A stretch of DNA of 64,000 nt, from IMG/VR virus record IMGVR_UViG_3300027770_000003, one strand, 5' to 3'. Below the pieces are notes generated by a model, which worked only from the letters and a program-made list of their open reading frames with translations, searched no databases and had not been told where the DNA came from. Both the position numbers and the translations under genes were made by a program. Shown here in pieces: positions 711 to 14,528 of this stretch (its first letter is position 1; the number at the start of each line of letters is the position of its first letter). Source of the DNA: an uncultured virus (IMG/VR IMGVR_UViG_3300027770_000003). Its lineage: Duplodnaviria; Heunggongvirae; Uroviricota; Caudoviricetes.

Positions 711-742
711 GACTACCGTCCTTTGGTTTGGTTGATGGCTCA

Positions 743-790: not shown

Positions 791-834
791 AAATAACAAT
801 AATCCCCCAACCCCCGATCATGGGGCTGAGGGAT
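791..834 (-). terminator. Intrinsic terminator
   Basis: ATCCCTCAGCCCC...GGGGTTGGGGGAT stem followed by a U-rich tail, downstream of the stop at 859. Confidence 0.65.
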
Positions 835-858
835 CATTGAGACCATTACAGACTTTTA

Positions 859-1473
859 CTAACTGTGAGCATCCTCTGACTGGTGCAAGGCACTCAATTC
901 AGCACCACGAGTGTCACCATCATCACCATCTTCGGTTGCGATTTTGACTGCCATCTCCATGATTGCACTTCCCATTTCAGCAGTGAAGAAAAACTGACCA
1001 AATCGCACACCATCACGCCATGCCAAGCGAACCTGTCCATCTGCAATCGCTGTCCACTTCACTCCATTCACAATGTCACGGCGTGACAAGCGTGTGAAGA
1101 TTCCATCTTTGGCAACACGATCAACTGTTGAAAGACTCATGTCGTACTGTTCCACTTCCATGAAACATTCTGTGAAACCAATCGGATGACAGATCGCTGA
1201 GTAATCGTTGTCAATGCCGACATTCTTCCAGCCACCTTCACCAGCGAACTCGGAGAGCAGAACACCTTTGACAAGTTCGTCAGTGAATTGTGATGTTTCT
1301 GTCCATGTGTATCGCTGTGGTGTGTTGTTAAGATCTTCCATCGCTTCCATCACTCCACACTCGGAGCAGATCTCGGTCTTATTGTCTCGGCGTGAAAGTG
1401 CTCCACAATATTCTCCAGCATGAAGCCGATTTGGAATTGGCTCGGAGCAAAGAGGACACATTTTGATTTTCAT
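859..1473 (-). CDS. Hypothetical protein with N-terminal Zn-ribbon
   Basis: CPLC...ALSRRDNKTEICSECG; start moved to the ATG at 1473 behind an AAAGGA RBS. Confidence 0.7.
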   Translation of the reverse strand: MKIKMCPLCSEPIPNRLHAGEYCGALSRRDNKTEICSECGVMEAMEDLNNTPQRYTWTETSQFTDELVKGVLLSEFAGEGGWKNVGIDNDYSAICHPIGFTECFMEVEQYDMSLSTVDRVAKDGIFTRLSRRDIVNGVKWTAIADGQVRLAWRDGVRFGQFFFTAEMGSAIMEMAVKIATEDGDDGDTRGAELSALHQSEDAHS

Positions 1474-1504
1474 TTCAGTTCCTTTCGGTTGGTTTACAAA
1501 CTCA

Positions 1505-1532
1505 AAGTTATCACTTCGGAATGGCTTTGCAA
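1505..1532 (-). promoter_or_regulatory. SigA-like promoter TTGCAA-N16-TAACTT with extended TG, abutting a motif copy
   Basis: Intergenic position; motif copy ends immediately 5' of the -35 box. Confidence 0.5.
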
Positions 1533-1554
1533 GGACATTACAAACATTTGAGAT

Positions 1555-1585
1555 ACAGAAAAGCCCCAGCCTTTCGGCTGAGGCT
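1555..1585 (-). terminator. Intrinsic terminator
   Basis: AGCCTCAGCC-GAAA-GGCTGGGGCT-TTTC after the stop at 1611. Confidence 0.8.
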
Positions 1586-1610
1586 CTTCTACTTGCTTCT
1601 GATGGGGGAA

Positions 1611-2669
1611 TCAGGCGCAAACTTCGGTGAGCCTTTCCAACACCATCTTGTCGTAATCGGCTTGCTGATTGCTCAAGAGCCTTGAGTAGTTCCTGTTGTA
1701 GCGATTCTTATCGCCACCACTGAAGTGTTGGTGGAAGGTGGTTGTGGCTTGGACAACACCAAGTGCTGTGTTCTTCCAAGGGGTCACTCGTGCATCATCA
1801 CGCCACAAGTTCTCCAGCAAGTCACGCTTCGGATTCTGCTTGCCAGCAGAGCGAGTGTCAGGTGTTGATGTCTTCACTGTGATCATCTTGCCAGCCTCAT
1901 CAGTCGTGATGATTTCTGCCAAGTTGATTGGGAAGAGATCTTCCACCAATGCTGTGAACTGGTTGTCAGTGACTGCCCATGCACTCAACTTCTCAAGTGC
2001 GAGCAACATATCGTCCGATGTCTTGAACACGATGTCCAAAGCATTGCGAACCGATGTGAGATCTCCCATTGAGTTTCCACTGTGACGGAACTTGATCTGC
2101 TGACCTTGCTCGCCAAGTGCCATTGCAAGTGTGTTGTCGCAAACCACTGCCTGCATCACACGCTTGATGATGGTTTGATTCTTTCCATCATGCGATGTTG
2201 TTGCGAGAAGTGTTGGGCGAAACTCAAACCCTGCTGATGATGTCACTGAATCAGGAACTGAGATCTGAACCCAACCACGAGCCGACTTTGTGAGAAGTCC
2301 TGCTGAGTCAATTCCGAGTTCTGATGAGTCAATGATTTGATTCAAGTTGTCCAACAACACTTCGCCGTACTGGTGGATCTGATAACGATCCGACACCACG
2401 CCGAACACATTGCCATCTTTTCCGTGAACGATTGCTTGTGTGTTTTCAATCTGACGGTAGTAGCCCTCTTCGGTCTGCTGGAACACTGGACGAGACACTG
2501 CCTCAAAGTTGAACAGTCTGCGCCGAACATCTTCCACTGGAATGAATCCATCGTAAGAGTTTGGCTCATCGCCCTGATCTTCTGCTCGCCAATGCCATGC
2601 CTTGCCACGCTTCAACACATTGCCGATTAAGGTCATTGTGTTGAGCCACTTGCTGGTCTCTGCACTCAT
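1611..2669 (-). CDS. DUF932 / TIGR03299 phage-plasmid-like protein
   Basis: LLATTSHDGK, VVCDNTL and FRHS motifs typical of DUF932. Confidence 0.8.
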   Translation of the reverse strand: MSAETSKWLNTMTLIGNVLKRGKAWHWRAEDQGDEPNSYDGFIPVEDVRRRLFNFEAVSRPVFQQTEEGYYRQIENTQAIVHGKDGNVFGVVSDRYQIHQYGEVLLDNLNQIIDSSELGIDSAGLLTKSARGWVQISVPDSVTSSAGFEFRPTLLATTSHDGKNQTIIKRVMQAVVCDNTLAMALGEQGQQIKFRHSGNSMGDLTSVRNALDIVFKTSDDMLLALEKLSAWAVTDNQFTALVEDLFPINLAEIITTDEAGKMITVKTSTPDTRSAGKQNPKRDLLENLWRDDARVTPWKNTALGVVQATTTFHQHFSGGDKNRYNRNYSRLLSNQQADYDKMVLERLTEVCA

Positions 2670-2721
2670 GATTGTTACCTTTATTCTTTCCGACCCGTAG
2701 GTCTTTTGGTTGTAGAAGAAC

Positions 2722-2751
2722 ATCATAACCATGCCCACGCTGTTATTGCAA
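2722..2751 (-). promoter_or_regulatory. SigA-like promoter TTGCAA-N18-TATGAT
   Basis: Lies between a terminator and the DUF932 gene; shares upstream TTGAGTA(A)G with the promoter at 743-772. Confidence 0.55.
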
Positions 2752-2780
2752 CTTACTCAAACAATAAAGATTTGAGCCAT

Positions 2781-2817
2781 ATAACACAAGATCCCCAGCC
2801 ACTTGGACTGGGGATCT
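2781..2817 (-). terminator. Intrinsic terminator
   Basis: AGATCCCCAG...CTGGGGATCT stem followed by TGTGTTAT. Confidence 0.7.
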
Positions 2818-2858
2818 CATGCTTGTCTTTTGATGAACTCAGGACATTACAGACTTTT

Positions 2859-3275
2859 CTAAGCGAACAACGACCTGATCGCATCATTGAGAAAACCTAC
2901 TGCTTCGCCTTCATCATAAACTGGATTCTCCCAGTCATCAGAGAAGCGAACAGCACTTGCTGTTTCTGTTGCGTTGGCACAAATAACTACCAACACTCGC
3001 CTGCGCTCAGGGTGCATTGATGGTGGAATCATTTGCTCACCAACATTGTTTGGAGAAGCCCAGCCACAAGTCGTGACGATGACACTGTCTGATGCGATTG
3101 CCACTGCTGATGTAAGTGGATTTTCCAACATCTCGTAGATGTCACCATGTTCCATGATGAGTGTCGTTGATTCTCCACTCACGCTGTAGAAACTTGACTT
3201 CTTTGCTTCTGCCTTTTCTCTTCCGAACATACTTGAATTGCTCAAGTATTTCAGAGTTTCCATTGCTGTGCTCAT
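2859..3275 (-). CDS. Hypothetical protein
   Basis: 138-aa ORF with AAAGGAG RBS; PPSMHPERRRV segment. Confidence 0.75.
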   Translation of the reverse strand: MSTAMETLKYLSNSSMFGREKAEAKKSSFYSVSGESTTLIMEHGDIYEMLENPLTSAVAIASDSVIVTTCGWASPNNVGEQMIPPSMHPERRRVLVVICANATETASAVRFSDDWENPVYDEGEAVGFLNDAIRSLFA

Positions 3276-3344
3276 TCATTGCTCCTTTGGTTTGGTTATT
3301 TCGGATCTAACTTTGGAATCGCTTTGACAATACATTACAGAGTT

Positions 3345-3500
3345 TTATTTCATTTCGTAATAGTTACCGTTTTTAGTTTGTGCGAGTCCAGTGTAAATAA
3401 TTACTTGACCATCGTTGTCCTCATCAAGGCTGGCAGTTGGAATAAGTTCTTCCAACTTGGTACGCAATTCTTCACCGTTAATAATCACTGTGGTTTTCAT
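3345..3500 (-). CDS. Small hypothetical protein (51 aa)
   Basis: MKTTVIINGEEL...; TAATG-coupled to the upstream gene; not in the ORF track. Confidence 0.65.
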   Translation of the reverse strand: MKTTVIINGEELRTKLEELIPTASLDEDNDGQVIIYTGLAQTKNGNYYEMK

Positions 3501-3814
3501 TAGTCCTCACACTCACAATCCTCAAGCGACTCTTCGCACATTGAGCAATCACCTTCGTAGTCATCGTCCTCTTCATCATCTGTGTCCATTGCATCAATGT
3601 CCATTGCATCAACTGAGAACCATGACATCACTGTCATGAGAACATTGTCGTAGTCACCTGATGTTGCTTCGGAGCGAAATGCTTGAACCTGATCACTCAG
3701 TCCGTTTCGCTTGAGTGCCTGAGTGCATCGTGCCATGATTGCAAATGCATTTCCATCTTCACCCACCAAATCAATGGTGATGTTTGGATACTTTGGCTCA
3801 TCTGTCTTTAACAT
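3500..3814 (-). CDS. Hypothetical phage protein with acidic Cys-rich tail
   Basis: LVGEDGNAFAI...SGDYDNVL conserved small phage-protein motif. Confidence 0.75.
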   Translation of the reverse strand: MLKTDEPKYPNITIDLVGEDGNAFAIMARCTQALKRNGLSDQVQAFRSEATSGDYDNVLMTVMSWFSVDAMDIDAMDTDDEEDDDYEGDCSMCEESLEDCECED

Positions 3815-3843
3815 TTTGTTCTTACCTTTCGTTGGTTGGTTTG

Positions 3844-4281
3844 TTACTTACTTGCTTCATTCAACACTCTAGCAACATTTACTCGCATCTCATCAACGAA
3901 CCGATCCCACATCCAGTCGCTGTTTACGGAGTCGGCAAATGATTGAAGTTTCTCGGTGCTGAGATTGAGCAGGATTTTCTGAGTCTCATATGAGTCTGCG
4001 TACATCTCAATGTTGGAGTGGATTTCATCCCTGATTGCGTTGGGGCTAAATGCGATGCAGTTGAGATAGTTCAGATCGCCGTAACCACATCCTTTGAGAA
4101 TGGACATTACAGAGTTTCCTTCATCATCAGCAATTTCTGCAATCGCATCATCGTCACCTTCACGGAATGACTCTTGTTGCTCCTCAGTCAATTCATTGAG
4201 ATCAACAAGAACTAATTGTTCAATGTGCATGAATGTTCCGTTGTCTACATCAACAATTACTTTGTCTGTTTGCGTAGCCAT
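3844..4281 (-). CDS. Hypothetical acidic protein
   Basis: 145-aa ORF, TAATG coupling. Confidence 0.7.
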   Translation of the reverse strand: MATQTDKVIVDVDNGTFMHIEQLVLVDLNELTEEQQESFREGDDDAIAEIADDEGNSVMSILKGCGYGDLNYLNCIAFSPNAIRDEIHSNIEMYADSYETQKILLNLSTEKLQSFADSVNSDWMWDRFVDEMRVNVARVLNEASK

Positions 4282-4643
4282 TACTTGCCCCCTCTGCGTG
4301 TGTAATCGTCTACTGCATCAATGATGTTGTCTGAGTAATCGCCAGTGCTAGCAGAGAAATCTTTCTCTCCTGCAACAACTGCCCACACTGCATACGGATC
4401 ACGATCATTTGCATCTTTCATGCAGATTGTAATCCACGATGCGAGTGTGTCACCAACAACACGATTTGTCTTTTTGGTGCAAGCAATCACTACTGCGCCG
4501 TTGTGAAGAATCGTGCCGATTTCCAATTCGTTATTTCTTGGATCTGATTTCACAATAAGATCTGTTCTTCCACTGCTCAACACTTCGTCCACAAACTGCT
4601 TGAACACTTTGTTGTATTTCTCGGAATAGTCTTCGGATGTCAT
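4281..4643 (-). CDS. Hypothetical protein
   Basis: 120-aa ORF with AAAGGAG RBS. Confidence 0.7.
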   Translation of the reverse strand: MTSEDYSEKYNKVFKQFVDEVLSSGRTDLIVKSDPRNNELEIGTILHNGAVVIACTKKTNRVVGDTLASWITICMKDANDRDPYAVWAVVAGEKDFSASTGDYSDNIIDAVDDYTRRGGK

Positions 4644-4697
4644 TACTTGCTCCTTTTGTTGGTTTGGAATAAATACATTACAGACTTATTTGGACAA

Positions 4698-4763
4698 TTA
4701 CTCCCACATGAGCCAAAAAAAGAAAATGGTCAGAATGAGTGAGGTAATTAGCATTGTTGTCAT
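4698..4763 (-). CDS. Hydrophobic micropeptide (21 aa)
   Basis: MTTMLITSLILTIFFFWLMWE; ATGA overlap with the upstream stop. Confidence 0.45.
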   Translation of the reverse strand: MTTMLITSLILTIFFFWLMWE

Positions 4764-5050
4764 ACTGCGCCAGCCAGTCCGAGTAAGCATTTGAGAGTGT
4801 AGAAGCGTGGCAATGATGTATCAAAGCACTCGTCACAAGTAACCCCATCGGGGAACAGATCAGTGTCCATCTCAAATGTAAAATCTTTATCAAATGACTC
4901 AAGTGTGTGGGCGCAGTCAAGACATACCCATCTGTCTTCTAATGCTCCTGAATCAGAATCGGTGTAATAACCAAGCACCTCGCACTGCATCAACCAATCA
5001 ATCAATCTCTTTGGAATGATCCGTAAGGGAAATCCGTAGTTACCTCGCAT
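4760..5050 (-). CDS. Hypothetical Zn-binding protein
   Basis: CLDC...CDEC pairs; GGAG RBS. Confidence 0.65.
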   Translation of the reverse strand: MRGNYGFPLRIIPKRLIDWLMQCEVLGYYTDSDSGALEDRWVCLDCAHTLESFDKDFTFEMDTDLFPDGVTCDECFDTSLPRFYTLKCLLGLAGAV

Positions 5051-5267
5051 TTGTAGTCTCCTGTTCGTGCTTGTATTTTGTGATCCAGTCTTGTGCATCA
5101 CTGTCAGACATTACTTCTGCATCCCATGCAACATCAAAACCTGCATCATCACTAAATGTTGGTTGCCCTTGATTGCCCCAACTGATCATTGCGAGATCTT
5201 CTGATTCTGCTTCAACCAAGAATGAGTGCTCAATATTTTGGGAGACTCTTACGATGTAGTAAGTCAT
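5040..5267 (-). CDS. Hypothetical protein
   Basis: 75-aa ORF with GAGG RBS. Confidence 0.65.
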   Translation of the reverse strand: MTYYIVRVSQNIEHSFLVEAESEDLAMISWGNQGQPTFSDDAGFDVAWDAEVMSDSDAQDWITKYKHEQETTNAR

Positions 5268-5443
5268 GATGCCACCTCTTCAATGGACATTACAGCCTTA
5301 TTGCGTGTGATGAATGATGACAGAGCCAATTTCCCAGCCAGTTTTGCTCCGTCAGTATCTTCGGACTCAACCAAGACATGGCGAGACATTTGAGTGTTGG
5401 CTCGCTTTACTTTCCAAGTTGCTGTAGCAATGTACGTTTTCAT
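5264..5443 (-). CDS. Small hypothetical protein (59 aa)
   Basis: MKTYIATATWKV...; AGGAG RBS; ATGA coupling. Confidence 0.6.
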   Translation of the reverse strand: MKTYIATATWKVKRANTQMSRHVLVESEDTDGAKLAGKLALSSFITRNKAVMSIEEVAS

Positions 5444-5451
5444 AAGTTCTC

Positions 5452-5730
5452 CTAAAGATAAGTGATTTGTTCAATGTTCTTGAATGGAATAGTGACACCT
5501 TCAAGATGCTCATCCATCTCGTAGTCGGTGGTCACTGTAATCATGTCATCATCTGAGTCAGTAGCAGACTGGGTAACTGCTTCAACATAACACGAGTAGA
5601 AATCATTTGTGTATGTATGAATGTCTACAAGTGAACCAATCAAGGCTTTGATGTGTGGTGAATCTGCTGGCTGGCAGTCAGAAGACATCCGAACAATGAG
5701 TTGATGAGTACCACCACGATGATTGATCAT
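5452..5730 (-). CDS. Hypothetical protein
   Basis: ORF coupled by an ATGA overlap. Confidence 0.6.
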   Translation of the reverse strand: MINHRGGTHQLIVRMSSDCQPADSPHIKALIGSLVDIHTYTNDFYSCYVEAVTQSATDSDDDMITVTTDYEMDEHLEGVTIPFKNIEQITYL

Positions 5731-6278
5731 TTTGTACCCCATTTGATAATCGTTTCATATGTGTGTTCCAATCCATATGATTTGACAACAAAGTCTTCAG
5801 TAGGTGGCATACCTGTCATCATTCTTTTCAGTTGCTCTTCACCATCTTCGCAGTAGAAGAAGATCTTGTCATCTCGTTGTCCAAACGAATCAAAGTCTTC
5901 ACTGATCTCAGAGTCGTATTCTCCAAATGAAATGTATTGCTCTTCCATAATTCCTGAGTCGTACCACTGAATGATGCAGTGCGCTCCAAGTGCTGTTTTG
6001 TGTTCAGACATTACAGGTTTTTCCTTTGCTGTTGGTTGTTGATGGTTGAACTCTGCTTCATCATAGTCCTTTGCAGGATTATAAAAGTCATCATATGTGC
6101 GAACAATGTGGGGTGAGCGCAATGGAATGAATTGAACAGCAACATTGTTTGGTTGCTCGTCAAACCACGCTTGTGCCTCAGCACCATTCGCAAATGCTCC
6201 AAAGTACCGATCATGTCTACCTGATTGCACAAGAGCGATCAACGGAGTATTTGGAAACTCGTCTTTAAGAGATCCCAT
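5727..6278 (-). CDS. Hypothetical protein, possibly with a second in-frame start at 6011
   Basis: Start reassigned to MGSLKDEF; internal AAAGGA RBS followed by ATG. Confidence 0.6.
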   Translation of the reverse strand: MGSLKDEFPNTPLIALVQSGRHDRYFGAFANGAEAQAWFDEQPNNVAVQFIPLRSPHIVRTYDDFYNPAKDYDEAEFNHQQPTAKEKPVMSEHKTALGAHCIIQWYDSGIMEEQYISFGEYDSEISEDFDSFGQRDDKIFFYCEDGEEQLKRMMTGMPPTEDFVVKSYGLEHTYETIIKWGTK

Positions 6279-6381
6279 TGGCTTCTTCCCAGTCAAGTAA
6301 TGCGTAAGCCCATGTGTTGCAGTCAGTGCATGGGCATTTTGATTCATGCCCTTCAGGCTGTTGTGGTGGTTCGTTTGTCAT
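6265..6381 (-). CDS. Small His/Cys-rich protein (38 aa)
   Basis: MTNEPPQQPEGHESKCPCTDCNTW... Confidence 0.45.
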   Translation of the reverse strand: MTNEPPQQPEGHESKCPCTDCNTWAYALLDWEEANGIS

Positions 6382-6440
6382 AATCTCATTTAATCAGATC
6401 GGAATGGACATTGCAACCTTTTTCCAAACTTTATTTAGGA

Positions 6441-6542
6441 ACACAAAAGCCCCACACCCTGAAAGGATAAATAGGTGTGGGGCTATACCTACCAACCAAA
6501 GTAGGTTTGTGCTTTGCATCCACAACATCTAGTGATGTGGAT
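6441..6542 (-). ncRNA. Candidate ~100-nt three-hairpin small RNA ending in an intrinsic terminator
   Basis: -10-like TAAAGT at 6546-6551; stems at 6518-6542, 6487-6506 and 6448-6484 followed by TTTT; no ORF. Confidence 0.5.
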
Positions 6543-6555
6543 CAAACTTTAAGAA

Positions 6556-6774
6556 CTACCAGCGAACACTAATAAAGTTATGTGTGTCTTGACTGATGAC
6601 TTCTTTGTGGAACGGATCGTGGAGCGAGCCACGCAACATCTCTGCAATATCGGGTCTGTGTGCTGACATTGTGTTAAAGAATGTCTGCCCATATCTCCAT
6701 TCATTCCCTAACTTTTCATGGTTCGCTAACACCTTCGCAAGAAACTCTTCGTAGGTCATTTCATTTGTAGTCAT
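6556..6774 (-). CDS. Hypothetical protein
   Basis: WRYGQTFFN...DPFH small phage-protein motif. Confidence 0.7.
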   Translation of the reverse strand: MTTNEMTYEEFLAKVLANHEKLGNEWRYGQTFFNTMSAHRPDIAEMLRGSLHDPFHKEVISQDTHNFISVRW

Positions 6775-7208
6775 TATCTCGCCTCGCATAAGAGTGTAAT
6801 TGCAGTTTGCACAGCAGTGAATATGTTATGTGATGCACCCATTACAAAGTTTTGGTTCATCGGATCAACTATCTCAAAGTATGGATTTTCAAGATACTTA
6901 AACTTCTTCTTTTCTAATACCAACTCATCTAACTGAGCGTCAGTAGTAATACCCCACTGCCATAGTTGAGTCTCATTGACCAACTCACTACGAGCAGGGT
7001 ACTTTCCAAGAACCTCAATTCTGAGATTTCCTGCTACTCGGACTACACAACTATGAAGCATTGTGTATGCATAAGCAACAGTTTTGTTTTCCAAGCCGAC
7101 ATACCACTCTGCTCCCTTCTGATCAAGGTTCGGAGCGACATTCCAAGTGACCATTGGCAAGGACATTACAGAGTTATTTGTGAAGTTAATGTCTCCAGTA
7201 GTTTTCAT
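6774..7208 (-). CDS. Hypothetical protein
   Basis: 144-aa ORF with GAGG RBS. Confidence 0.65.
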   Translation of the reverse strand: MKTTGDINFTNNSVMSLPMVTWNVAPNLDQKGAEWYVGLENKTVAYAYTMLHSCVVRVAGNLRIEVLGKYPARSELVNETQLWQWGITTDAQLDELVLEKKKFKYLENPYFEIVDPMNQNFVMGASHNIFTAVQTAITLLCEAR

Positions 7209-7214
7209 CGTCTG

Positions 7215-7511
7215 TTATTCCTCATCTCTGTAAAGTTTTACTCTGACCTTGCCCAACTCAAATCCCTTGTCAGTGAGAATGTCGTTGGTGTCAGAATCAA
7301 CTGGGTAAGCAAAGGCTGTCAAGTATTTCGTGCCATAGATGTAGAAGTTGAGTGCGTATTTCCTAAACTCTTTGTCAGGGTAATACCACTCATCATGATC
7401 CGAATAAAAGCGTTCATTGTTATTAGTTAATGCTGACAAATAACCTTGAGCAAATAACCACAATGCAGTCATGTCTGCCCCGATTGCCTCATTAAGTTTC
7501 TTACGAGCCAT
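7215..7511 (-). CDS. Hypothetical protein
   Basis: 98-aa ORF with AAGGAG RBS. Confidence 0.7.
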   Translation of the reverse strand: MARKKLNEAIGADMTALWLFAQGYLSALTNNNERFYSDHDEWYYPDKEFRKYALNFYIYGTKYLTAFAYPVDSDTNDILTDKGFELGKVRVKLYRDEE

Positions 7512-7522
7512 TACTTTCTCCT

Positions 7523-7888
7523 TTAGATAGAACGGTAAACCGAGTCCACATAGTTTTCTTCTTGCCAGTCACTGAAATCTTCGTACTTGTCCACTTCAAT
7601 TTCCACATAGGGATCATATGCAGGATCATTCTCAAATGGCAACTCTGTAATGAAATATCCGATCCGATTTACCATTTGGTATCCATTGACAATGTATGTT
7701 CCATCATCACCATCAACCCATGTCCAGACTTTGTCTGGCTCAGAGTTAGCCATCTGAACAACATAAACAATGTCAGGAGCATATGTCTCAAACAGAGTTC
7801 CATTCCAACTTGCGTCTTTGGTGATGTGGTTTGTTACTGGCTTGTATTTCTCTGACCACTCATCAACTGGATCAAGTTTCGTGCTCAT
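7523..7888 (-). CDS. Hypothetical protein
   Basis: FETY...VWTWVDGD...NRIGYFITE conserved phage-family motif. Confidence 0.75.
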   Translation of the reverse strand: MSTKLDPVDEWSEKYKPVTNHITKDASWNGTLFETYAPDIVYVVQMANSEPDKVWTWVDGDDGTYIVNGYQMVNRIGYFITELPFENDPAYDPYVEIEVDKYEDFSDWQEENYVDSVYRSI

Positions 7889-8001
7889 TTGTTGTTCTGC
7901 ATTTCGCTCCATGAAATCATGCTTTCATCATCCTTTGGGTCTTTCTTTAACAGTTTGCACCACTCTAAATAAGTGATGTCATCATCAAATACTTTAATCA
8001 T
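7885..8001 (-). CDS. Small hypothetical protein (38 aa)
   Basis: MIKVFDDDITYLEWCK...; AAGGAG RBS. Confidence 0.5.
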   Translation of the reverse strand: MIKVFDDDITYLEWCKLLKKDPKDDESMISWSEMQNNK

Positions 8002-8194
8002 TGTCTGTCTCCTTAAGTTTTTGCATCAACTTTACTCGGCTATGCAGGTTGTTAATTAGGGCTTTCATTTGTTTTTCCGTGATAACGCTCTGTAGCGCAC
8101 CTGCTAGAAACTCTGTGGAATTGTCGCCCCATAAAGATCGTGAAAGTTCCACGAGTGTGTTCGCTGTGTAATGAAGTTCTACTTCTTTAATCAT
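7994..8194 (-). CDS. Hypothetical protein
   Basis: 66-aa ORF in a coupled gene string. Confidence 0.6.
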   Translation of the reverse strand: MIKEVELHYTANTLVELSRSLWGDNSTEFLAGALQSVITEKQMKALINNLHSRVKLMQKLKETDND

Positions 8195-8394
8195 TTAGGA
8201 GTCTCAAACTCGTCTACGACTACTGAGCGCAACTTGGAAGCATCGTAATCCCAAACACTTCCTTCCCATCCTTGCCGTTCTACAAACTCGGTGATTGCAA
8301 GTTGGTTTACTGCGTCCTCACTAAGTTCAATGACGCTCTCAATGAGGATTCTGAATGTCGCTGGAACGGTGACATTACAATAATATGTGATCAT
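8191..8394 (-). CDS. Hypothetical protein
   Basis: 67-aa ORF in a coupled gene string. Confidence 0.6.
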   Translation of the reverse strand: MITYYCNVTVPATFRILIESVIELSEDAVNQLAITEFVERQGWEGSVWDYDASKLRSVVVDEFETPK

Positions 8395-8630
8395 GCTGAT
8401 GTTCCTGACTCAATGCCAAGAATGGAATCGTGGAGCAATTCCCACACATTGCTGTTGATGTGCTGGTATCCCTCTTCATTGTCAAACTCTCCGACAGCGT
8501 TTTCCCATGCTTCATCTGAAATTGGATTGTCTTCACCATCATTGAATAAGTCTTTGCACCACCATGAGATGCAAATCTCTTCGTCAGGTTTGTATGTTTG
8601 CAACATTTCAATCGCTTCTGATACTTTCAT
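8391..8630 (-). CDS. Hypothetical protein
   Basis: MKVSEAIEMLQ...; AAGGAG RBS. Confidence 0.65.
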   Translation of the reverse strand: MKVSEAIEMLQTYKPDEEICISWWCKDLFNDGEDNPISDEAWENAVGEFDNEEGYQHINSNVWELLHDSILGIESGTSA

Positions 8631-8788
8631 GCTTTCTCCTTTACTGGGCAATCTAAGTATGGATTCTCATTACCTTCATTGTCTTCGCATGAACACCAGT
8701 TAAATATCGCTACTTGTGTTTCATGTGTTAAGTCTGCCATTTCTCCCCAACTGTAAGAGCGTTGGCTCAAGTCTGTGTTGTCAGTCAT
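8627..8788 (-). CDS. Small Cys-containing protein (53 aa)
   Basis: MTDNTDLSQRSYSW...WCSCED...CP; fills the gap with ATGA coupling. Confidence 0.55.
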   Translation of the reverse strand: MTDNTDLSQRSYSWGEMADLTHETQVAIFNWCSCEDNEGNENPYLDCPVKEKA

Positions 8789-8797
8789 AATTAGTTT

Positions 8798-9259
8798 CTA
8801 CCAAGATGACTGGTAGTAGAAATCCCAGCGATCTTCCATTGCAAGACAAGTCTCCAAAATATCAACAGTGTCGGCAAGGTCTTGGAAGTACCACTCGTCA
8901 TAATCTGTTGAGCCAAAGAAGAAACCTTCTTGGCAGGGAAGCAACTCATCTGCTTTTGAGTGATCAGCAATAACTTGCTTGCACAAATGAAGCAGTTCTC
9001 CAAGTTTGTCTCTGTCCACAAAACTCTCACGGCAGTCATCTTCGCCACCCTGACAGTTGTCTACAAAGTATTGGTGAATGTGGTTTGACTTGCGCCATTG
9101 CCCAACTAACATTTCAACTGAAATGCTTGGATGGTTCTTGTAAAGAAACTTGGAAGCATCACCAAGTGCATCTTTAAGTTGGCTGAACTCTTCTTCGGTG
9201 TTGTAAAGACCACTTTCCGATGTGTATTTCTTTGCTCTCAGGTACTGATCTAATCCCAT
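8798..9259 (-). CDS. Conserved phage hypothetical protein
   Basis: MGLDQYL...WRKSNHIH...GFFFGSTDYDEWY...YQSSW family signature. Confidence 0.85.
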   Translation of the reverse strand: MGLDQYLRAKKYTSESGLYNTEEEFSQLKDALGDASKFLYKNHPSISVEMLVGQWRKSNHIHQYFVDNCQGGEDDCRESFVDRDKLGELLHLCKQVIADHSKADELLPCQEGFFFGSTDYDEWYFQDLADTVDILETCLAMEDRWDFYYQSSW

Positions 9260-9290
9260 GACTTGCTCCTTTGTTTGGTTTGTGTTTGGA

Positions 9291-9319
9291 ATGGTACTGG
9301 CAAGCAGTGACCATTACAA
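9291..9319 (-). promoter_or_regulatory. SigA-like promoter TTGTAA-N17-TACCAT whose -35 box is the motif core
   Basis: The motif copy at 9312 supplies the -35 box. Confidence 0.5.
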
Positions 9320-9324
9320 CCTTT

Positions 9325-9774
9325 TTATTTTAATTTTTCTCCAGCCTTACCACGAACGGCTTTATTCAAGAATCCATGCTCTCTTGCACTCATCACCCTC
9401 TTGGCTGATGTGCTCTTAGAGATGTTGAACGCTTTAGCAATACTTGGTATCGGTGGGATTCCGTAGTTGCAGGACTCTTTGTAGATTCGGGCAACTTCTC
9501 GCAACACATCTTCTGACAGTGCAGAACCACGATGTGCTCCTGAGTGCTCAGTAGTAAGCGTTGGCTTTTCTAACACTCTTTCTCGTGCCACTTGCACAAA
9601 CTGCACGATAGGAACTCTGCGATAAGTTTCTACAGTAATCGGTGTGCCGTCCAATGATTCAATGAGAACAGAACTAAACACAAGATGATCTGCCATCTTC
9701 TTTAATCCAATAGTGATGTCATATTTAGTTTTAGTTACTGGATCTTCCCAACCCAATGTATGAACGATGGTCAT
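9325..9774 (-). CDS. HTH DNA-binding protein, DUF6214-like
   Basis: LREVARIY...IAKAFNISKSTSAKRVMSAREHGFL. Confidence 0.7.
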   Translation of the reverse strand: MTIVHTLGWEDPVTKTKYDITIGLKKMADHLVFSSVLIESLDGTPITVETYRRVPIVQFVQVARERVLEKPTLTTEHSGAHRGSALSEDVLREVARIYKESCNYGIPPIPSIAKAFNISKSTSAKRVMSAREHGFLNKAVRGKAGEKLK

Positions 9775-10052
9775 TTGCGTTGTTCTCTCCGAATCTTTTG
9801 TCGTGCACGATCTGTAGTGCCACCCCAAATGCCCGACACATAATTATCAAGGGCATAATTCAGGCAACTGGTCTTTACAACGCAGACATTACAGAAGTTT
9901 GCAATCACTCCACGATACTCACCACTGTCACCACGCTCAATAAAAAAGTTATTGACGCTAGTTCCGTAGCAAGCACCACGCTTCATCCATTTGGGATCTT
10001 CACGCAAGACTTCCTTGAAATTGTTTGTACCTTCTACGAGCGTTTCACTCAT
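9771..10052 (-). CDS. whiB: WhiB-family transcriptional regulator
   Basis: WMKRGAC...CNVCVVKTSC...GIWGG: four Cys plus the G(I/V)WGG turn. Confidence 0.9.
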   Translation of the reverse strand: MSETLVEGTNNFKEVLREDPKWMKRGACYGTSVNNFFIERGDSGEYRGVIANFCNVCVVKTSCLNYALDNYVSGIWGGTTDRARQKIRREQRK

Positions 10053-10387
10053 GCAGTCACCATGCTCAATACATCCAATAACTGGACAAATGAGTCTTCT
10101 GCCTCAAACGACTCAGGGTAGGTCTTTTGTGCGTCTTGGACAAACTTTGCGTACAGTGCATCGTCACTTGGTGAGTAGTGATTGCAACCACCAGTACCTG
10201 AGTTCTCTACCGTACAAACGACTACTTTTGTTTTTGCTTTAGCGATCTTTCCAACCCAACTTACGCCACGACTGTGCTCCATCTCAGAGACAATCTTGAA
10301 TGTGTATTTTCCTACTGCACTTTGATCAGCAGGAACTTCTACAAAGTCTTGGTGTTCTTCAGGAATACTTTTGTAATAGTCAATCAT
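10049..10387 (-). CDS. Hypothetical protein
   Basis: MIDYYKS... with GAGG RBS; VENSGTGGC motif. Confidence 0.65.
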   Translation of the reverse strand: MIDYYKSIPEEHQDFVEVPADQSAVGKYTFKIVSEMEHSRGVSWVGKIAKAKTKVVVCTVENSGTGGCNHYSPSDDALYAKFVQDAQKTYPESFEAEDSFVQLLDVLSMVTA

Positions 10388-10716
10388 TGTGCTTCCTCTA
10401 CTTGCCAAAATCCAAATGATGCTCCGTCTGAATCTGATGCTCCGAAACTGCATCCTTCGGGAGCGATTGCATCCATCACATTGAACAGGTGCTCAAGAAG
10501 AAATGACTCTTGCTCATAATCCCGATCCGATTTTGGATTGATGATGTTAAACAACACATCTTCCCATTCGTCCAAAATCGCATCTTTAATTTTGTGATCG
10601 TGCTCCCCGATTACTGAAAGAAAGGCTTTTGCCAAATCCTCATTACGGAGTGTTCCTTCGCTAACAACTTGGTTTACCCAAGTGTCTGCGAGAGGTCTGA
10701 TGTTCTCATATGACAT
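10384..10716 (-). CDS. Hypothetical protein
   Basis: SEGTLRNEDL...APEGCSFGA...GASFGFW conserved phage-family motif. Confidence 0.75.
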   Translation of the reverse strand: MSYENIRPLADTWVNQVVSEGTLRNEDLAKAFLSVIGEHDHKIKDAILDEWEDVLFNIINPKSDRDYEQESFLLEHLFNVMDAIAPEGCSFGASDSDGASFGFWQVEEAQ

Positions 10717-10741
10717 ATGTTGCTCCTTTGGTAGAAGCAAC

Positions 10742-10770
10742 ACATTAGTGGGTCAGAACAGTTTTGACAA
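10742..10770 (-). promoter_or_regulatory. SigA-like promoter TTGTCA-N17-TAATGT
   Basis: Near-consensus boxes upstream of an RBS. Confidence 0.7.
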
Positions 10771-10772
10771 CC

Positions 10773-10925
10773 CTATTCTTGAAGATTCTTTATTTCCGAG
10801 TCCGTGTATAACGGGAGCGTTTTATTCTTTGTGGCGCAGTGATGCGTAGGGCTATCAGACAGCCTCAAAAAGACTGTTAGTTGCTCTGAGCAATGTGGGC
10901 AGGAGTAATCGGTTTTGGGAGACAT
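10773..10925 (-). CDS. Small Zn-finger-like protein (50 aa)
   Basis: CPHC...HHC; AAGGA RBS. Confidence 0.5.
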   Translation of the reverse strand: MSPKTDYSCPHCSEQLTVFLRLSDSPTHHCATKNKTLPLYTDSEIKNLQE

Positions 10926-10935
10926 TATCTAATCC

Positions 10936-11460
10936 TTAATTTTGTGGAGTCCAAGGATCCCATCCTGCCACATCAAAGAGTGCTTTACCAGCACGGAGAT
11001 TATTTTGAGCAATCAGTAGAGGTTCTTGGGTGCAAATACCTAAGACAGTACAAACAACTGCCCACTTGTTGCGAGACAAGTCGTAGTTCACTCCATTAAT
11101 TTGGAGAAGCCCACTATCGGAACGGTGCGTGTAATCAATTACTCCTGTGACATTACAGGCTTTATCTACAATGTCACCACCTCTTCTGTTCGGACATCCA
11201 CCTGATTCTCGGAGAATAATCTGACCCAGTTTCTTCCACGTTTTTGGAGGCCATCCTGCTTCGGCAGCAAGTTGTGGGAGCCAACTAATATCCCCATGAC
11301 GGAACACAACGGGAGCGACTTTATCCCTTTGATCCACAATCGGGGTGCTTACTTTTACTTCGGGTTTTTCGTTTGAGGAAACTGCTGGTGCTACTGATAG
11401 TACGGTTGCTATTCCAAGATTTGCGAGTAGGGCACTAAGTATCGCCGTAAGTTTGATCAT
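10936..11460 (-). CDS. Secreted lytic transglycosylase (SLT-like)
   Basis: Hydrophobic signal peptide; ILRESGG catalytic Glu, DSGLLQIN and GWDPW motifs. Confidence 0.8.
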   Translation of the reverse strand: MIKLTAILSALLANLGIATVLSVAPAVSSNEKPEVKVSTPIVDQRDKVAPVVFRHGDISWLPQLAAEAGWPPKTWKKLGQIILRESGGCPNRRGGDIVDKACNVTGVIDYTHRSDSGLLQINGVNYDLSRNKWAVVCTVLGICTQEPLLIAQNNLRAGKALFDVAGWDPWTPQN

Positions 11461-11483
11461 TCATCATCCTTTGTTCGGGTAAT

Positions 11484-11505
11484 AAAAAAGCCCCATTACT
11501 GGGGC
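11484..11505 (-). terminator. Intrinsic terminator directly upstream of the SLT RBS
   Basis: GCCCCA-GTAA-TGGGGC-TTTTTT. Confidence 0.75.
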
Positions 11506-11543
11506 GGCTGCTCCTATTGGGAACACCTCTAGTTTACCCTAAA

Positions 11544-11954
11544 TTACTCTTCTAGCAACCTTTGGAGCAGAGTTTTTAGATCGCCAAGATCGTTACTGCT
11601 ATTGGGTATTACGCTAATATCAATATCTTTTTTTCTTTCTAAGTTTGCATCAACACACAGAGTGCAAGTGCAACCTTGTCTGTATCTCACTACTGTGCCA
11701 TGCACTGCAAGATTAGATACACGAGCAGATTTCTGAAGTGGTGTTCTGTCTTGTGGAGAAAGCCCACCCCACACTCCATAAACTTCTTTGATGCCTATGT
11801 CTAAACATTCTTGCCAAACTGGGCATACATTACAGATAGTTTTAGCGATGGCGTAATACTGTTCGGGATGTGGGGAATCAAAAGGTGGGAACCATATGTC
11901 TCCTGCTAGTTTGTTGCACAACGAATCCTGCATCCATTCGGGAGTAGTCTTCAT
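11544..11954 (-). CDS. whiB: WhiB-family regulator with an extra C-terminal HGT...CxCxxC domain
   Basis: WMQDSLC...CNVCPVWQEC...GVWGG, then HGTVVRYRQGCTCTLC. Confidence 0.9.
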   Translation of the reverse strand: MKTTPEWMQDSLCNKLAGDIWFPPFDSPHPEQYYAIAKTICNVCPVWQECLDIGIKEVYGVWGGLSPQDRTPLQKSARVSNLAVHGTVVRYRQGCTCTLCVDANLERKKDIDISVIPNSSNDLGDLKTLLQRLLEE

Positions 11955-12250
11955 GCGTTAGTCTCACGGTATAACGCAAGAGCAATAATTGCGTATGACG
12001 CAAGATCTATTAAAGAGTCCTCTATACCTTCGTTTACTAGTTTGCTACCTTTAGCAGCGCTTTGCAATCGGATTACTTTATCGTTTGCTCTAATAAGAGT
12101 CCCAATCCAACTAGGGACACCCCAATCAGCAGATGCACGAACATTTGCGAGAGGATCTTCAGCAGTGCCGTAATCTTTTCCTTTTTTGCTATGTAGTTCT
12201 CGCAACTCATCTAGGATTTGGAAGAACATTGGATTTCCGTATTGGTTCAT
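11951..12250 (-). CDS. Nucleotide modification associated domain 1 (DUF1599-like) protein
   Basis: KKGKDYG...DKVIRL...EGIEDSLIDLASYAII. Confidence 0.75.
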   Translation of the reverse strand: MNQYGNPMFFQILDELRELHSKKGKDYGTAEDPLANVRASADWGVPSWIGTLIRANDKVIRLQSAAKGSKLVNEGIEDSLIDLASYAIIALALYRETNA

Positions 12251-12678
12251 TCTTCATCTCCTGTTTCTACCCAAGCACTAAGATCGTCCATCATGTAAAA
12301 GACTGGGATGCCCAATCTTTCTGCTTCAAGTACCTCATCAATAGTTCCAAGCGAACTTTCGGAATCATGAACTAGAACAGCATCACAACGCTTTAGTATC
12401 TGAAAGCAGTATTCATTCCAATGACCAACACTGTGCTGATGTCTCTTTTGCCAGTGGTATGTAAGATTAGGAATAATCGGGAGACAAATACCCGATGTGT
12501 ACAATTCTTCTGCTATGTCTATAGCATCATTACAGTTATCCTCAAAGTCTTCGTGTACATATGGCCCTGCTATGTAAACGTGGGGCAAAACCAGGTGAGC
12601 AAGAGTCCTTAAAAACTCCTTGTTTGCACCCTCTTCTAATATGTCTTCCGAGTAGTTACGCAAATGAAATCCTCTCAC
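12247..12678 (-). CDS. Nucleoside 2-deoxyribosyltransferase-like protein (DUF4406/DUF1937-like)
   Basis: VYIAGPY...LKRCDAV...SLGTIDE...LGIPVF. Confidence 0.7.
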   Translation of the reverse strand: MRGFHLRNYSEDILEEGANKEFLRTLAHLVLPHVYIAGPYVHEDFEDNCNDAIDIAEELYTSGICLPIIPNLTYHWQKRHQHSVGHWNEYCFQILKRCDAVLVHDSESSLGTIDEVLEAERLGIPVFYMMDDLSAWVETGDEE

Positions 12679-12680
12679 TA

Positions 12681-12752
12681 TTAGTATCTGTTCATACTAG
12701 ATCGTGAGAGGAAGTAAAAGCAAGCAAGGGCAAATAGCACTATAAATCTCAT
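12681..12752 (-). CDS. Hydrophobic micropeptide (23 aa)
   Basis: MRFIVLFALACFYFLSRSSMNRY with AGGAG RBS. Confidence 0.45.
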   Translation of the reverse strand: MRFIVLFALACFYFLSRSSMNRY

Positions 12753-12796
12753 GTTGTACTCCTGATGTTGGACTAATTTATCCAACCCTACTACAA

Positions 12797-13039
12797 CTAT
12801 TTAGTTGTGGTATTCCAGTGGTACACGGCTTGGTGAAGAACCCCTAAAACATCGTCAGGATTCTCGTCATCATTCTCTAAGGCTTGGCAATAACTATTTG
12901 CTGCTTTGATAATGCTTTCAGCATTAGCCAGTTTCTTAGCAAATGAATCAACCAGTTGGCGTAGTGCCTGCTTATCGTCATACGCCCTAGCGAGAGAGAC
13001 TTGAAGATCTTGAATTACTGCAAACTCAAATGATTCCAT
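12797..13039 (-). CDS. Hypothetical coiled-coil protein
   Basis: 80-aa ORF with GAGG RBS. Confidence 0.65.
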   Translation of the reverse strand: MESFEFAVIQDLQVSLARAYDDKQALRQLVDSFAKKLANAESIIKAANSYCQALENDDENPDDVLGVLHQAVYHWNTTTK

Positions 13040-13066
13040 AAAACCTCATTTCATAGGTTATATACC

Positions 13067-13095
13067 AGCGTACATCCTATGAATGGTCTTGTCAA
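13067..13095 (-). promoter_or_regulatory. SigA promoter TTGACA-N17-TACGCT
   Basis: Perfect -35 box, TANNNT -10 box. Confidence 0.75.
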
Positions 13096-14528
13096 GCATC
13101 ATCCGAAAGATCTAGGACATCTTGGTACATGGTATTGGCTTGATGGGCGTTTAATCCCCCACTTGACAACTGCCTAGTGACATCCCCAGCACTCTGCCCA
13201 AACAAGCGACTCAACACTCCACTGCTTCCACGAGCCTCTACTTCTAAGCGAACCATATCCCGTGTATCACTTATGTTCCTAAACTTCTCAACAAGGTTAA
13301 AGAGCCTGTCTACTTCTCCTGAAAGTGCTGGGTCAAGACCTTGACCTTCTAGTTCTTCAGCGAAGCGAGCGAACAAAACACGACTCACTTGCATCTCCAA
13401 CATTGCCCTCAATGCGGCTTGTAACTGATCCTTAGTTTTAATCTCTACAGGCAACTTAAAGCCACACTCAGAATCTTGTCGGAAAGCAGGGCAACGAGCG
13501 CTGAGATAGCAACTATTGCATTGACGTAAAAGGTTGCCTTTATACGAAATTACTGGTATCTTTTCAACGCCTAATTCTTCAGATTCTTCATCACCAGCAA
13601 GGGTTTGAGCGAGTTGTGGAGTGAATTGCTCAATACCAATGACAGGTAGTAATACTTTGTCATCCTCGTGCCGCATCTCAGCACCTCGGATACTAATACT
13701 TGACCCCCTAGGAGCCACATTTGGAACGGAAGGCACATTGCTGGGATAGTTACTATCCGTGACACTTTCTGATAGACCAATTTCTTGCTCATCATCAAGT
13801 TCTTGAGGCTCATAGACCCCAAAAGTTGTCTTTTCCCATGCTTGCCAAGACACGATTGCAAGCCTTGCTACCTCAGAGTTATCATCTTGAACAATGGCAT
13901 CGTAGTCAATACCTAGTTTAATGATGTCGTTTCGGTGCTTCTTTCGGGCGGAATCTTTCTGTTGTGCTGGGTATCGGCGTAGCCCATGACCATCCCAAAC
14001 CTGAGTCTCGCCATAACGAACGGCAGATGTCCAAGAACCCACAATTACTGAATCCCAAGGCAGTGAAGCAATAACATCGGGCTTGGACGACAACCCAATC
14101 AATTTGGCATCCCACCTTTGGACTAGGTTTCTAATGCGGGATATTGTTTTGCCATTAACTGCTTTGTCGCTGATTGCTGCTCTGCCATTCTTCTGGCATA
14201 ACCACGCAAGTCGTTCCATATCGTCTGGGTCATTCCATACAGGAATATAGCGTTCACCTAGCCAAGTACCGTCATAATCGGGTCTTCCTATGACCATTGC
14301 AATGTTTTCGTAGTGCTGTCTGACAAAATCGTCATAGCGACTGACATCCTCATCAGTCTCCGAGGTGTACAGAACGATGTCCCCAGCAGGGAACATTACA
14401 GACAAATCAAGTTCTTTTTTCTTAGGAATTGGCAAATGGGTGAGATTCACTGCGTATTGCGTGACACCTGATGCCTGAAGCAATGACCTGTGGGATGCCT
14501 TTTCAGCATTGGCAAAGTAAACTTTCAT
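13092..14528 (-). CDS. TGT/DpdA-like TIM-barrel protein (degenerate active site) fused to a Cys-rich C-terminal domain
   Basis: IPVW, LIGL...LPWDSVIVGSWTSAVRYG pattern; C-terminal CNSCYLSARCPAF...C. Confidence 0.6.
   Translation of the reverse strand: MKVYFANAEKASHRSLLQASGVTQYAVNLTHLPIPKKKELDLSVMFPAGDIVLYTSETDEDVSRYDDFVRQHYENIAMVIGRPDYDGTWLGERYIPVWNDPDDMERLAWLCQKNGRAAISDKAVNGKTISRIRNLVQRWDAKLIGLSSKPDVIASLPWDSVIVGSWTSAVRYGETQVWDGHGLRRYPAQQKDSARKKHRNDIIKLGIDYDAIVQDDNSEVARLAIVSWQAWEKTTFGVYEPQELDDEQEIGLSESVTDSNYPSNVPSVPNVAPRGSSISIRGAEMRHEDDKVLLPVIGIEQFTPQLAQTLAGDEESEELGVEKIPVISYKGNLLRQCNSCYLSARCPAFRQDSECGFKLPVEIKTKDQLQAALRAMLEMQVSRVLFARFAEELEGQGLDPALSGEVDRLFNLVEKFRNISDTRDMVRLEVEARGSSGVLSRLFGQSAGDVTRQLSSGGLNAHQANTMYQDVLDLSDDA

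Follow-up and report, generated by a model that had tools for sequence, protein, structure and literature searches.

A conserved multi-hairpin element of an uncultured lake phage, with loops complementary to shared early-gene leaders, as a candidate regulatory RNA

Introduction

The c4 antisense RNA of phages P1 and P7 is presumably cut out of the same transcript that it controls. In the satellite phage P4, the CI RNA is a small stable RNA processed from an early transcript, and it shuts down the early region via repeated complementary sites. Loop-seed small RNAs (sRNAs), such as RNAIII and RsaE of Staphylococcus aureus and the actinobacterial 6C, are Hfq-independent and use pyrimidine-rich loops to anneal to the Shine-Dalgarno (SD) sequences of several mRNAs. 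Here we describe a multi-hairpin element at positions 6546-6440 of a 64,000-nt stretch of DNA from an uncultured tailed virus (IMG/VR record IMGVR_UViG_3300027770_000003), the whole of which is referred to as the window. A first-pass annotation of this stretch had proposed a trans-acting phage sRNA whose loops are antisense to the leaders and SD sequences of early genes. From comparison with related phages, we conclude that the element is probably a functional RNA made on the gene strand (the minus strand) and not just a terminator.

Other phages provide further points of reference. In phage T4, RegA is a repressor protein and RegB is a GGAG-specific nuclease. Cluster K mycobacteriophages carry start-associated sequences, a short conserved sequence common to many translation-start regions, and we know of no complementary RNA tied to them. 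In T4, the two cause post-transcriptional shut-down of a class of early mRNAs via their ribosome-binding regions (see also the review PMC3014915). Among the titles and abstract openings surveyed, no paper described an RNA by which a phage targets an early leader common to several genes, and the phage RNAs mentioned there were mostly RNAs of temperate coliphages with single targets. The regulatory RNAs of lytic phages, and of actinobacterial phages especially, are almost unknown.

Results

Structure of the element and its predicted terminator

The minus-strand RNA from 6560 to 6430 folds at -47.9 kcal/mol, compared with a mean of -31.0 kcal/mol for shuffled sequences (z = -4.26), and none of the 200 shuffles folded as well. 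Three successive hairpins and a U tail had been described on this strand, and the fold bears this out over 6546-6440 (Table 1). Hairpin 3 and its tail (-22.7 kcal/mol) form a predicted intrinsic (Rho-independent) terminator, consisting of a GC-rich hairpin and the U tract UUUUGUGUU downstream of a co-oriented gene. The terminator lies at least 70 nt past the stop codon of the upstream gene and 60 nt ahead of the next start codon; the terminator scan did not list it because its 13-nt loop exceeds the size that the scan allows. CACAAA at 6511-6506 is a further potential partner of the U tract (37-43 against 102-108 of A2), and this pairing is invariant and thus offers no covariation. The plus strand folds as well, as expected of any set of palindromes, and the G-U pairs are compatible with the gene strand only.

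No Rfam 15 family, among which we take C4 and 6C to be included, matched the window at its gathering score, the best low-score matches reaching 16.2 bits (cut-off 67) and 10.6 bits (cut-off 40). A search with model R1 found no second copy of the element in the window, and searches of phage genomes with the element gave no further match.

Conservation among related phages

Viral and metagenome contigs were scanned for relatives by protein and by pattern. For the element in its window form (type A), the comparison covers five distinct variants, namely the window, L033, L018 (= L003), L030, and L021 (= L004 type). Exact-pattern scans with pieces of the element returned the same few lineages only (five of 12 loci real in one scan, five loci in another, and three of eight real in a third), and the nearest record, G001, is 100% identical over the element and thus uninformative. 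The scan of bacterial genomes with the element pattern gave no match, which speaks for the absence of a prophage or host copy in those genomes.

In the L004 type of the type A element, the 77-aa upstream gene is missing and the element follows a 144-aa gene, so that the upstream neighbour is not fixed. The window and L004-type elements differ at six of 81 columns (29-109 of A2, from GAUGC to the end of the U tract), whereas four-fold degenerate sites are 56% identical in neighbouring genes (168/298; the gene list includes some alternative-frame open reading frames, ORFs) and 40% identical in the adjacent 144-aa gene (17/43). A binomial test against the four-fold sites gives P = 1.4e-12, based on a hand count of 73/79. 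RNAalifold predicts 38 pairs in type A. Four of these have changed on both sides and still pair; each of the four lies in hairpin 1 and comes from the L004 type. The hairpin 1 loop is invariant in the five variants. In hairpin 3, one-sided changes preserve pairs (C-G to U-G and U-G to U-A), and the 3' part of the loop, UUAUCCUUUCA, is invariant. The L004-type comparison thus indicates that hairpin 1 is conserved as a shape and the remainder as sequence.

Two further clades, reached via the DUF932 gene, the promoter-like block downstream of the terminator and the 77-aa gene family, hold a multi-hairpin element in the same place, between a homologue of the 77-aa gene and the promoter block. A scan with the pattern AGGTTGYAATGTCCRTTCC found 13 loci in viruses, and at each of them a multi-hairpin element lies just upstream. 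Type B comprises five distinct variants (L049, L050, L055 = L043, L056, and L058) and the more divergent L079/L080 and L081. Its element has four hairpins, the last of which is a terminator. Hairpin 0 has the loop core UUUCCUCCUUUCG (CUCCUUUCG in L081) and shows CCUCCUUUC in a loop of 17-19 nt (L043 6083-6130; same place in L049-L059 and L071-L081), hairpin 1 has a variable loop, and hairpin 2 has the invariant loop UUUGGGUU. RNAalifold predicts 54 pairs in type B with five compensatory changes, three of them in hairpin 2, and in L079 and L081 the entire stems of hairpins 0 and 2 have been replaced with the loops preserved. Type C (L064, L065-68) consists of a small hairpin with the loop ACUCCUUG and a long GC hairpin whose tip, UUUGGUUGG, is the window's loop 2 atop an unrelated stem. 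Loop 2 is seen without change in the five distinct variants of type B and with one change in type A.

Covariation in relatives, which the first-pass annotation had named beforehand as a check on its proposal, was found in hairpin 1 of type A and hairpin 2 of type B. These patterns show that the element is under selection in three clades of lake phages (A, B, and C), with stems that compensate while two loops stay fixed. A homologue of the upstream gene is present at 43 loci. At 18 of them there is also a type A, B or C element, and at the remaining 25 inspection of sequence and fold, with no model search made, showed none. Model R1 gives weak matches in distant relatives, such as that in L043 (10.9 bits, E = 1.3), which is an orthologous element on inspection. 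In L044-L048, R1 also matches sequence upstream of DUF932 (9.4-15 bits), but these matches resemble unrelated terminators and were left out.

Complementarity between loops and early leaders

Copies of a motif of the form (A/T)CTGTAATGTCC, with variants, are spread over about 800-14400, most of them on the gene strand. Some precede leaders and others lie within coding sequence, and the relatives L003, L004, and L043 conserve them at the same places. The array probably represents the early promoter of the phage or some other regulatory word. Downstream of several copies lie leaders of the form (C)AACCAAAC...AAAGGAGCAAGTnATG.

Complementarity was scored as a perfect complement of at least 7 nt between the element's loops and the predicted leaders. 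By this measure the loops complement nine of the 40 early leaders, compared with an average of 0.72 for 6366 segments of 101 nt on both strands, of which 0.11% reach nine. All segments that do equally well or better lie on the untranscribed strand and are direct antisense of leaders; the element is the best segment of the gene strand. Loop 2 had been claimed to be antisense to an early-leader motif, and with its closing bases it indeed matches six of 40 early leaders and one of 75 late leaders. This score of six is reached by 0.23% of 42,660 segments of the same length and by 1.5% of 5,000 loop shuffles. The 8-mer CAACCAAA is not enriched across the whole window (5 observed, 4.69 expected), and two of its four minus-strand copies fall in leaders (727-734 and 2705-2712). 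Duplexes of loop 2 with its best leaders have energies of -8.9 to -11.7 kcal/mol, and the mean over all starts is no better than random (-6.04 vs. -5.97).

The companion claim, that the terminator loop is complementary to ribosome-binding sites (RBSs) of the form AAAGGA(U)/GAAAGGA, fared worse. A 7-nt match was found in three of 40 early and three of 75 late leaders of the window, which is not significant. The leader half of the proposed antisense relationship is supported and the SD half is weak in the window; relatives expose a clear anti-SD-like loop. Loops match 15 of 28 leaders in L043 (reached by 0 of 1248 random segments), 11 of 22 in L071 (0 of 309), 10 of 26 in L079 (0 of 309), 6 of 23 in L066 (0 of 319), and 4 of 48 in L041 (13 of 669), and the anti-SD-like loops account for much of the excess in these relatives. 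The type B loop CCUCCUUUC appears to copy the 3' anti-SD tail of 16S rRNA; its core contains CCUCCU, named as the anti-SD of mycobacterial 16S rRNA in the excerpt of PMC12274833.

Joint change of loop 2 and the leader word

The leader word changes together with loop 2. Types A and C combine the loop UUUGGUUG with leaders containing AACCAAA, and type B combines the loop UUUGGGUU with leaders containing AACCCAAA. On the gene strand of the early 14.6 kb of the window, CAACCAAA occurs three times and AACCCAAA not at all; on that of L043 (12.9 kb), AACCCAAA occurs four times, three of them in leaders including that of the DUF932 gene, and CAACCAAA not at all. In both phages, the native 8-mer appears only once on the opposite strand, as the loop. 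When loops are swapped in silico, the A loop matches 5-9 leaders of type A phages and the B loop 0-3, whereas in type B phages the B loop matches 3-5 leaders and the A loop 0-1. The leader of the DUF932 gene illustrates the exchange, as it reads CAACCAAAAG in the window and AAACCCAAAC in L043, where the site is AAACCCAAA.

Transcription and coding potential

The word TAAAGT at 6550-6545 had been read as -10-like. It is not a conserved promoter: TAAAGT, TAGATT and TAAAGA are no more than -10-like, and the sequence upstream consists of the coding ends of different genes in different lineages, with no common -35 or phage promoter motif. A promoter-like word inside the L043 gene is not conserved in the relatives of L043. 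An origin from the 3' untranslated region (3'-UTR) is therefore more likely than a free-standing sRNA gene. The RNA data are assembled contigs of two metatranscriptome runs with small shares, and such contigs show neither ends nor levels. They cover 5672-5984 and 6721-8000 in pieces. One contig from an RNA library is identical over 6441-6487 only and continues into unrelated sequence, and in a relative one RNA-library contig passes through the U tract.

The region had also been called free of ORFs, which is nearly right: a hydrophobic 44-aa frame (6528-6394) is formally open but not conserved in relatives. As a gene this frame was rejected, as it runs through the terminator, none of the three frames stays open over the element of type B, its coding score of 0.0006 is below that of 98.5% of true in-frame windows, and HMMER against 1.84 billion representatives returned only the frame itself and three spurious long proteins. 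The frame exists as a called protein in a public protein collection, probably through a false gene call.

Other candidates were also set aside. The idea of an attP site or tRNA fragment was dropped because ARAGORN found no tRNA or transfer-messenger RNA (tmRNA) gene and the 94 window ORFs scanned against Pfam included no integrase family. A put-like antiterminator was rejected because any polymerase that reaches the terminator would already have made the hairpins. The suggestion that the phage SpoVS protein could be a chaperone for the RNA found no support beyond the presence of the gene, as nothing links SpoVS to the element.

Genome context

All long ORFs of the window are on the minus strand. 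Family scans of the window proteins identified structural genes (portal, capsid, tail sheath and tube, and baseplate) as well as DnaB, a primase, a family A polymerase, RecA, a DpdA-like protein, SpoVS, and two WhiB proteins. The two WhiB genes point to an actinobacterial host, and WhiB in actinobacteriophages is the topic of PMC8612146, as far as its excerpt goes. Near-identical DNA is present in freshwater and lake metagenome runs, relatives occur in about 20 lake metagenomes, and the phage is apparently lytic and myovirus-like. The genes for SpoVS, the two WhiB proteins, the DpdA-like protein and a TauD-family dioxygenase together suggest DNA modification and mimicry of host regulators in a freshwater actinophage.

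The element occupies the gap from the stop codon of a 77-aa gene (TAG, 6558-6556; 10 nt ahead of hairpin 1) to a 38-aa gene with its start at 6381 (Table 1). The 77-aa protein matched no Pfam or PHROG family and the 38-aa protein no Pfam family. The block AGGTTGCAATGTCCATTCC just past the terminator is, from its position, probably the promoter of this next gene. The conserved 38-aa frame is Cys-rich (…KCPCTDCNTWAYALLDWEE…) and overlaps, in another frame, a listed 206-aa ORF (6347-5727, minus), the true start of which is probably an internal Met (6278); the L004-type version of that ORF is about 90 residues shorter.

Several observations stand apart from the element. In both WhiB genes, the letters of the CTGTAATGTCC motif encode C-N-V-C. 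At 2851-2770 and 850-790 (minus), the motif CTGTAATG is followed within 10-35 nt by a strong GC hairpin, GATCCCCAG...CTGGGGATC with the T-rich TTGTGTT in the first case and CAATGATCCCTCAGCCCC...GGGGGATTATTG with TTATTT in the second; these are candidate short terminated transcripts or attenuators before the DUF932 gene and the gene near 709. Three tandem units of about 24 nt at 35853-35925, each with the palindrome GGGTGTC..CAGTGACACCC, lie within or beside the helix-turn-helix (HTH) gene 35728-36249 ahead of the replication genes and are candidate operators or origin iterons. At 19381-19470, four head-to-tail 18-nt repeats (TAGGCTTC...) lie within the 460-aa ORF 18323-19705, so that the encoded protein has a repetitive segment.

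Table 1. Features of the element, the early leaders and selected genes in the window (coordinates on the 64,000-nt stretch)
Feature	Position	Strand	Description
Hairpin 1	6513..6546	-	UUUGAUCCACAUCAC-UAGAU-GUUGUGGAUGCAAA; apical loop CUAGA at 6532-6528; -11.0 kcal/mol alone
Hairpin 2	6487..6506	-	ACCUAC-UUUGGUUG-GUAGGU; anti-leader loop 6500-6493; -8.2 kcal/mol
Hairpin 3	6449..6484	-	GC-rich 12-bp stem; 13-nt loop UAUUUAUCCUUUC at 6472-6460; predicted terminator stem
U tract	6440..6448	-	UUUUGUGUU; predicted terminator tail
Open 44-aa frame across hairpins 2-3	6394..6528	-	MLWMQSTNLLWLVGIAPHLFILSGCGAFVFLNKVWKKVAMSIPI; judged not a gene
Conserved block	6401..6419	-	AGGTTGCAATGTCCATTCC; CTGTAATGTCC variant just past terminator
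Upstream gene	6556..6789	-	77 aa as listed; conserved from MTTNEM...; HDPFHK motif
Downstream small gene	6265..6381	-	38 aa, MTNEPPQQPEGHESKCPCTDCNTWAYALLDWEEANGIS; frame open and conserved in five lineages
Motif copies (A/T)CTGTAATGTCC	e.g., 9318, 7170, 6015, 5294, 4682, 4111, 3339, 2851, 1542, 850	-	
Leaders (C)AACCAAAC...AAAGGAGCAAGTnATG	before starts 9259, 4643, 3814, 3275, 2669, 1473, 709		
Leader site	721..734	-	CAACCAAACCAAAG; upstream of gene starting near 709
Leader site	2705..2712	-	CAACCAAA; ~40 nt upstream of DUF932 gene start (2669)
Leader site	3285..3297	-	AACCAAACCAAAG; immediately 5' of SD, gene starting 3275
Leader site	3832..3839	-	CCAACCAA; before gene starting 3814
Leader site	9274..9280	-	AACCAAA; before gene starting 9259
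Leader site	10726..10732	-	ACCAAAG; before predicted start 10716
WhiB regulators (two)	9771-10052; 11544-11954		
DpdA-like transglycosylase	13092-14528		PHROG 887
SpoVS	21244-21534		
TauD-family dioxygenase	22346-23131		

Discussion

Proposed function of the element

The element may be a regulatory RNA that forms the 3' end of an early transcript and acts by base pairing of its loops with shared early leaders. We give this reading about even odds (roughly 0.5). The RNA would most likely derive from the 3' end of the early transcript upstream, perhaps after trimming to a stable RNA of about 100 nt with a putative 5' end. Acting in trans, loop 2 (UUUGGUUG) would pair in the cell with the A/C-rich (C)AACCAAA(G) that lies between the CTGTAATGTCC-type promoter motif and the SD of a set of early genes, and the pyrimidine-rich terminator loop (AUCCUUUC) could contribute short pairing with the neighbouring AAAGGA. 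Pairing at or beside the RBS would alter, and probably lower, translation of the whole gene set as the RNA accumulates, and the outcome would be delayed feedback on early genes.

Several observations weigh against this function. The potential duplexes are short, at 7-9 bp. The same 7-mers also occur in coding sequence, and of the 41 7-mer matches on the gene strand about 28 fall outside leaders. The leader sets come from simple and crude gene calls. The score of the window's terminator loop is matched by 11% of segments and 22% of shuffles. No conserved promoter was found upstream of hairpin 1 across the lineages, and no contig of the RNA runs spans the element, although contigs cannot reveal transcript ends. 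The L004-type loop has become UGUGGUUG, yet the leaders still read CAACCAA(A), and this loop matches five of 48 leaders where the window-type loop would match nine. In type C, the loop-2 match is weak, with one of 21-23 predicted leaders and two by eye in 8 kb. Because there are few clades (about three independent lineages), the co-variation depends on the single contrast between A/C and B.

A bolder version of the base-pairing proposal is an RNA 'regulon switch' in which two loops clamp the common early leader, one copying the anti-SD tail and the other reading a phage-specific word. This version is tentative and, on present evidence, doubtful. If it were true, the co-evolving loop and word (AACCAAA vs. 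AACCCAAA) may set specificity between competing related phages and would amount to an RNA-based code of heteroimmunity or cross-silencing in lytic freshwater actinophages.

Alternative explanations

The strongest of the alternatives, although we consider it unlikely and slightly less probable than the bolder version above, is that the element is a mere terminator with RNA-stabilising or processing hairpins that ends the upstream early unit and insulates it from the following promoter, the loop matches being functionless. In favour of this are its place in every lineage, immediately between a stop codon and a conserved promoter-like block, its GC stem and U tract, the lack of a promoter of its own, and the similar tails of other terminators of this phage (e.g., at 2800 and 11505). 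However, the loops of a terminator or stabiliser need no conservation, and here they are invariant while the stems turn over. The excess of loop-to-leader matches is moreover replicated in six lineages, and loop 2 tracks the leader motif.

The same tracking could arise at the DNA level if loop and leader motif were one double-stranded site, AACC(C)AAA, for a phage DNA-binding protein, present in inverted form in hairpin 2; the co-variation would then reflect protein specificity instead of RNA pairing. A switch of motif between A/C and B is explained equally well in this way, and the phage encodes several DNA-binding regulators (two WhiB, an HTH, and a MerR-like protein). The leader motif, however, is strongly strand-biased (AACCAAA 8:1 in the early region and 16:4 in the window) and placed in the transcribed leader beside the SD, while every inverted copy is found in a hairpin loop above a co-varying stem, which is a feature at the RNA level. 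A DNA site thus appears improbable, well below the terminator explanation.

Marginally less probable again is that the element acts in cis on the downstream gene (6381-6265), as a leader or attenuator, with read-through of the terminator set by alternative pairings. The short distance between the terminator and the next start codon would suit an attenuator, and the L004-type loop 2 perfectly complements, over 9 nt, codons 5-7 of the downstream gene. The window, L003, and L033 types lack this match, and no conserved anti-terminator pairing was found by eye, the 3' arm of hairpin 1 changing completely. In type B the element is kept in front of a different downstream gene, and a promoter-like block lies between terminator and gene.

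Mimicry of the 16S 3' tail by the CCUCCUUUC and AUCCUUUC loops, as a decoy for a host or phage factor such as a MazF-type RNase, ranks lower still. In its favour are the CCUCCU in the type B loop and the actinobacterial host suggested by the WhiB genes. Loop 2 and its co-variation with leaders would be left unexplained, and the window's own element is without the type B hairpin 0 and retains only UCCUUUC in its terminator loop, the 16S tail presumably continuing UUUCU after CCUCCU. A mycobacterial MazF removes the last 11 nt of 16S rRNA (PMC12274833, in its excerpt), which would suit a decoy of this kind. Finally, the idea that the element encodes a small hydrophobic peptide of 41-44 aa (6528/6519-6394), in the manner of a type I toxin mRNA, is close to refuted: the frame is open in type A lineages, three of about eight nucleotide changes are synonymous and the start codon is buried in hairpin 1, but the frame crosses the terminator and U tract, is closed in type B, belongs to no peptide family and scores poorly as coding sequence, and the synonymous sites are themselves conserved.

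Implications and comparison with known systems

The comparative data alone point to a single RNA that matches a leader common to many early genes and whose specificity can be read as a code. Such a model is directly testable, and it would allow early genes to be shut off or tuned with no need of a RegA- or RegB-like protein. It would also account for the common word that some actinophages keep before many start codons, and it may offer a compact orthogonal pair of RNA and leader for engineering.

The kind of system is known, and the form proposed here, with its putative transcript and effect, appears to be new. The logic comes closest to that of c4 (77 nt), which in the excerpt of PMC12197685 pairs via short exposed sequences with complementary sites around an RBS of the phage's own mRNA and, like the present RNA, differs in specificity between related phages by matched changes of RNA and target (heteroimmunity). 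The two share no sequence or Rfam similarity. While c4 controls one operon (ant) in a temperate phage of a Gram-negative host, the present RNA would address many separate early leaders, ends in its own terminator, and belongs to an apparently lytic actinophage. The P4 CI RNA resembles it in logic, but CI acts by premature transcription termination in a satellite phage and its fold is unrelated.

In design, the loop-seed sRNAs of Gram-positive bacteria are closest, as their terminator is the last hairpin, as here. They are host RNAs with UCCC or CCCC loops, whereas the phage element has a second, phage-specific loop directed against a motif upstream of the SD. CisR, a 3'-UTR-derived RNA that acts on the cep mRNA of CTXphi, shares the terminator of its upstream gene and needs no promoter of its own, according to an excerpt of its description, and the same arrangement is proposed here. 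CisR is, however, host-encoded and of the Hfq type, and processing of the present RNA is only proposed. The start-associated sequences of Cluster K resemble the AACCAAAC...AAAGGAGCAAGT leaders of this phage, but the leader word here has a co-varying complementary loop. Finally, the effectors of early shut-down in T4, RegA and RegB, are proteins, whereas the effector proposed here would be an RNA.

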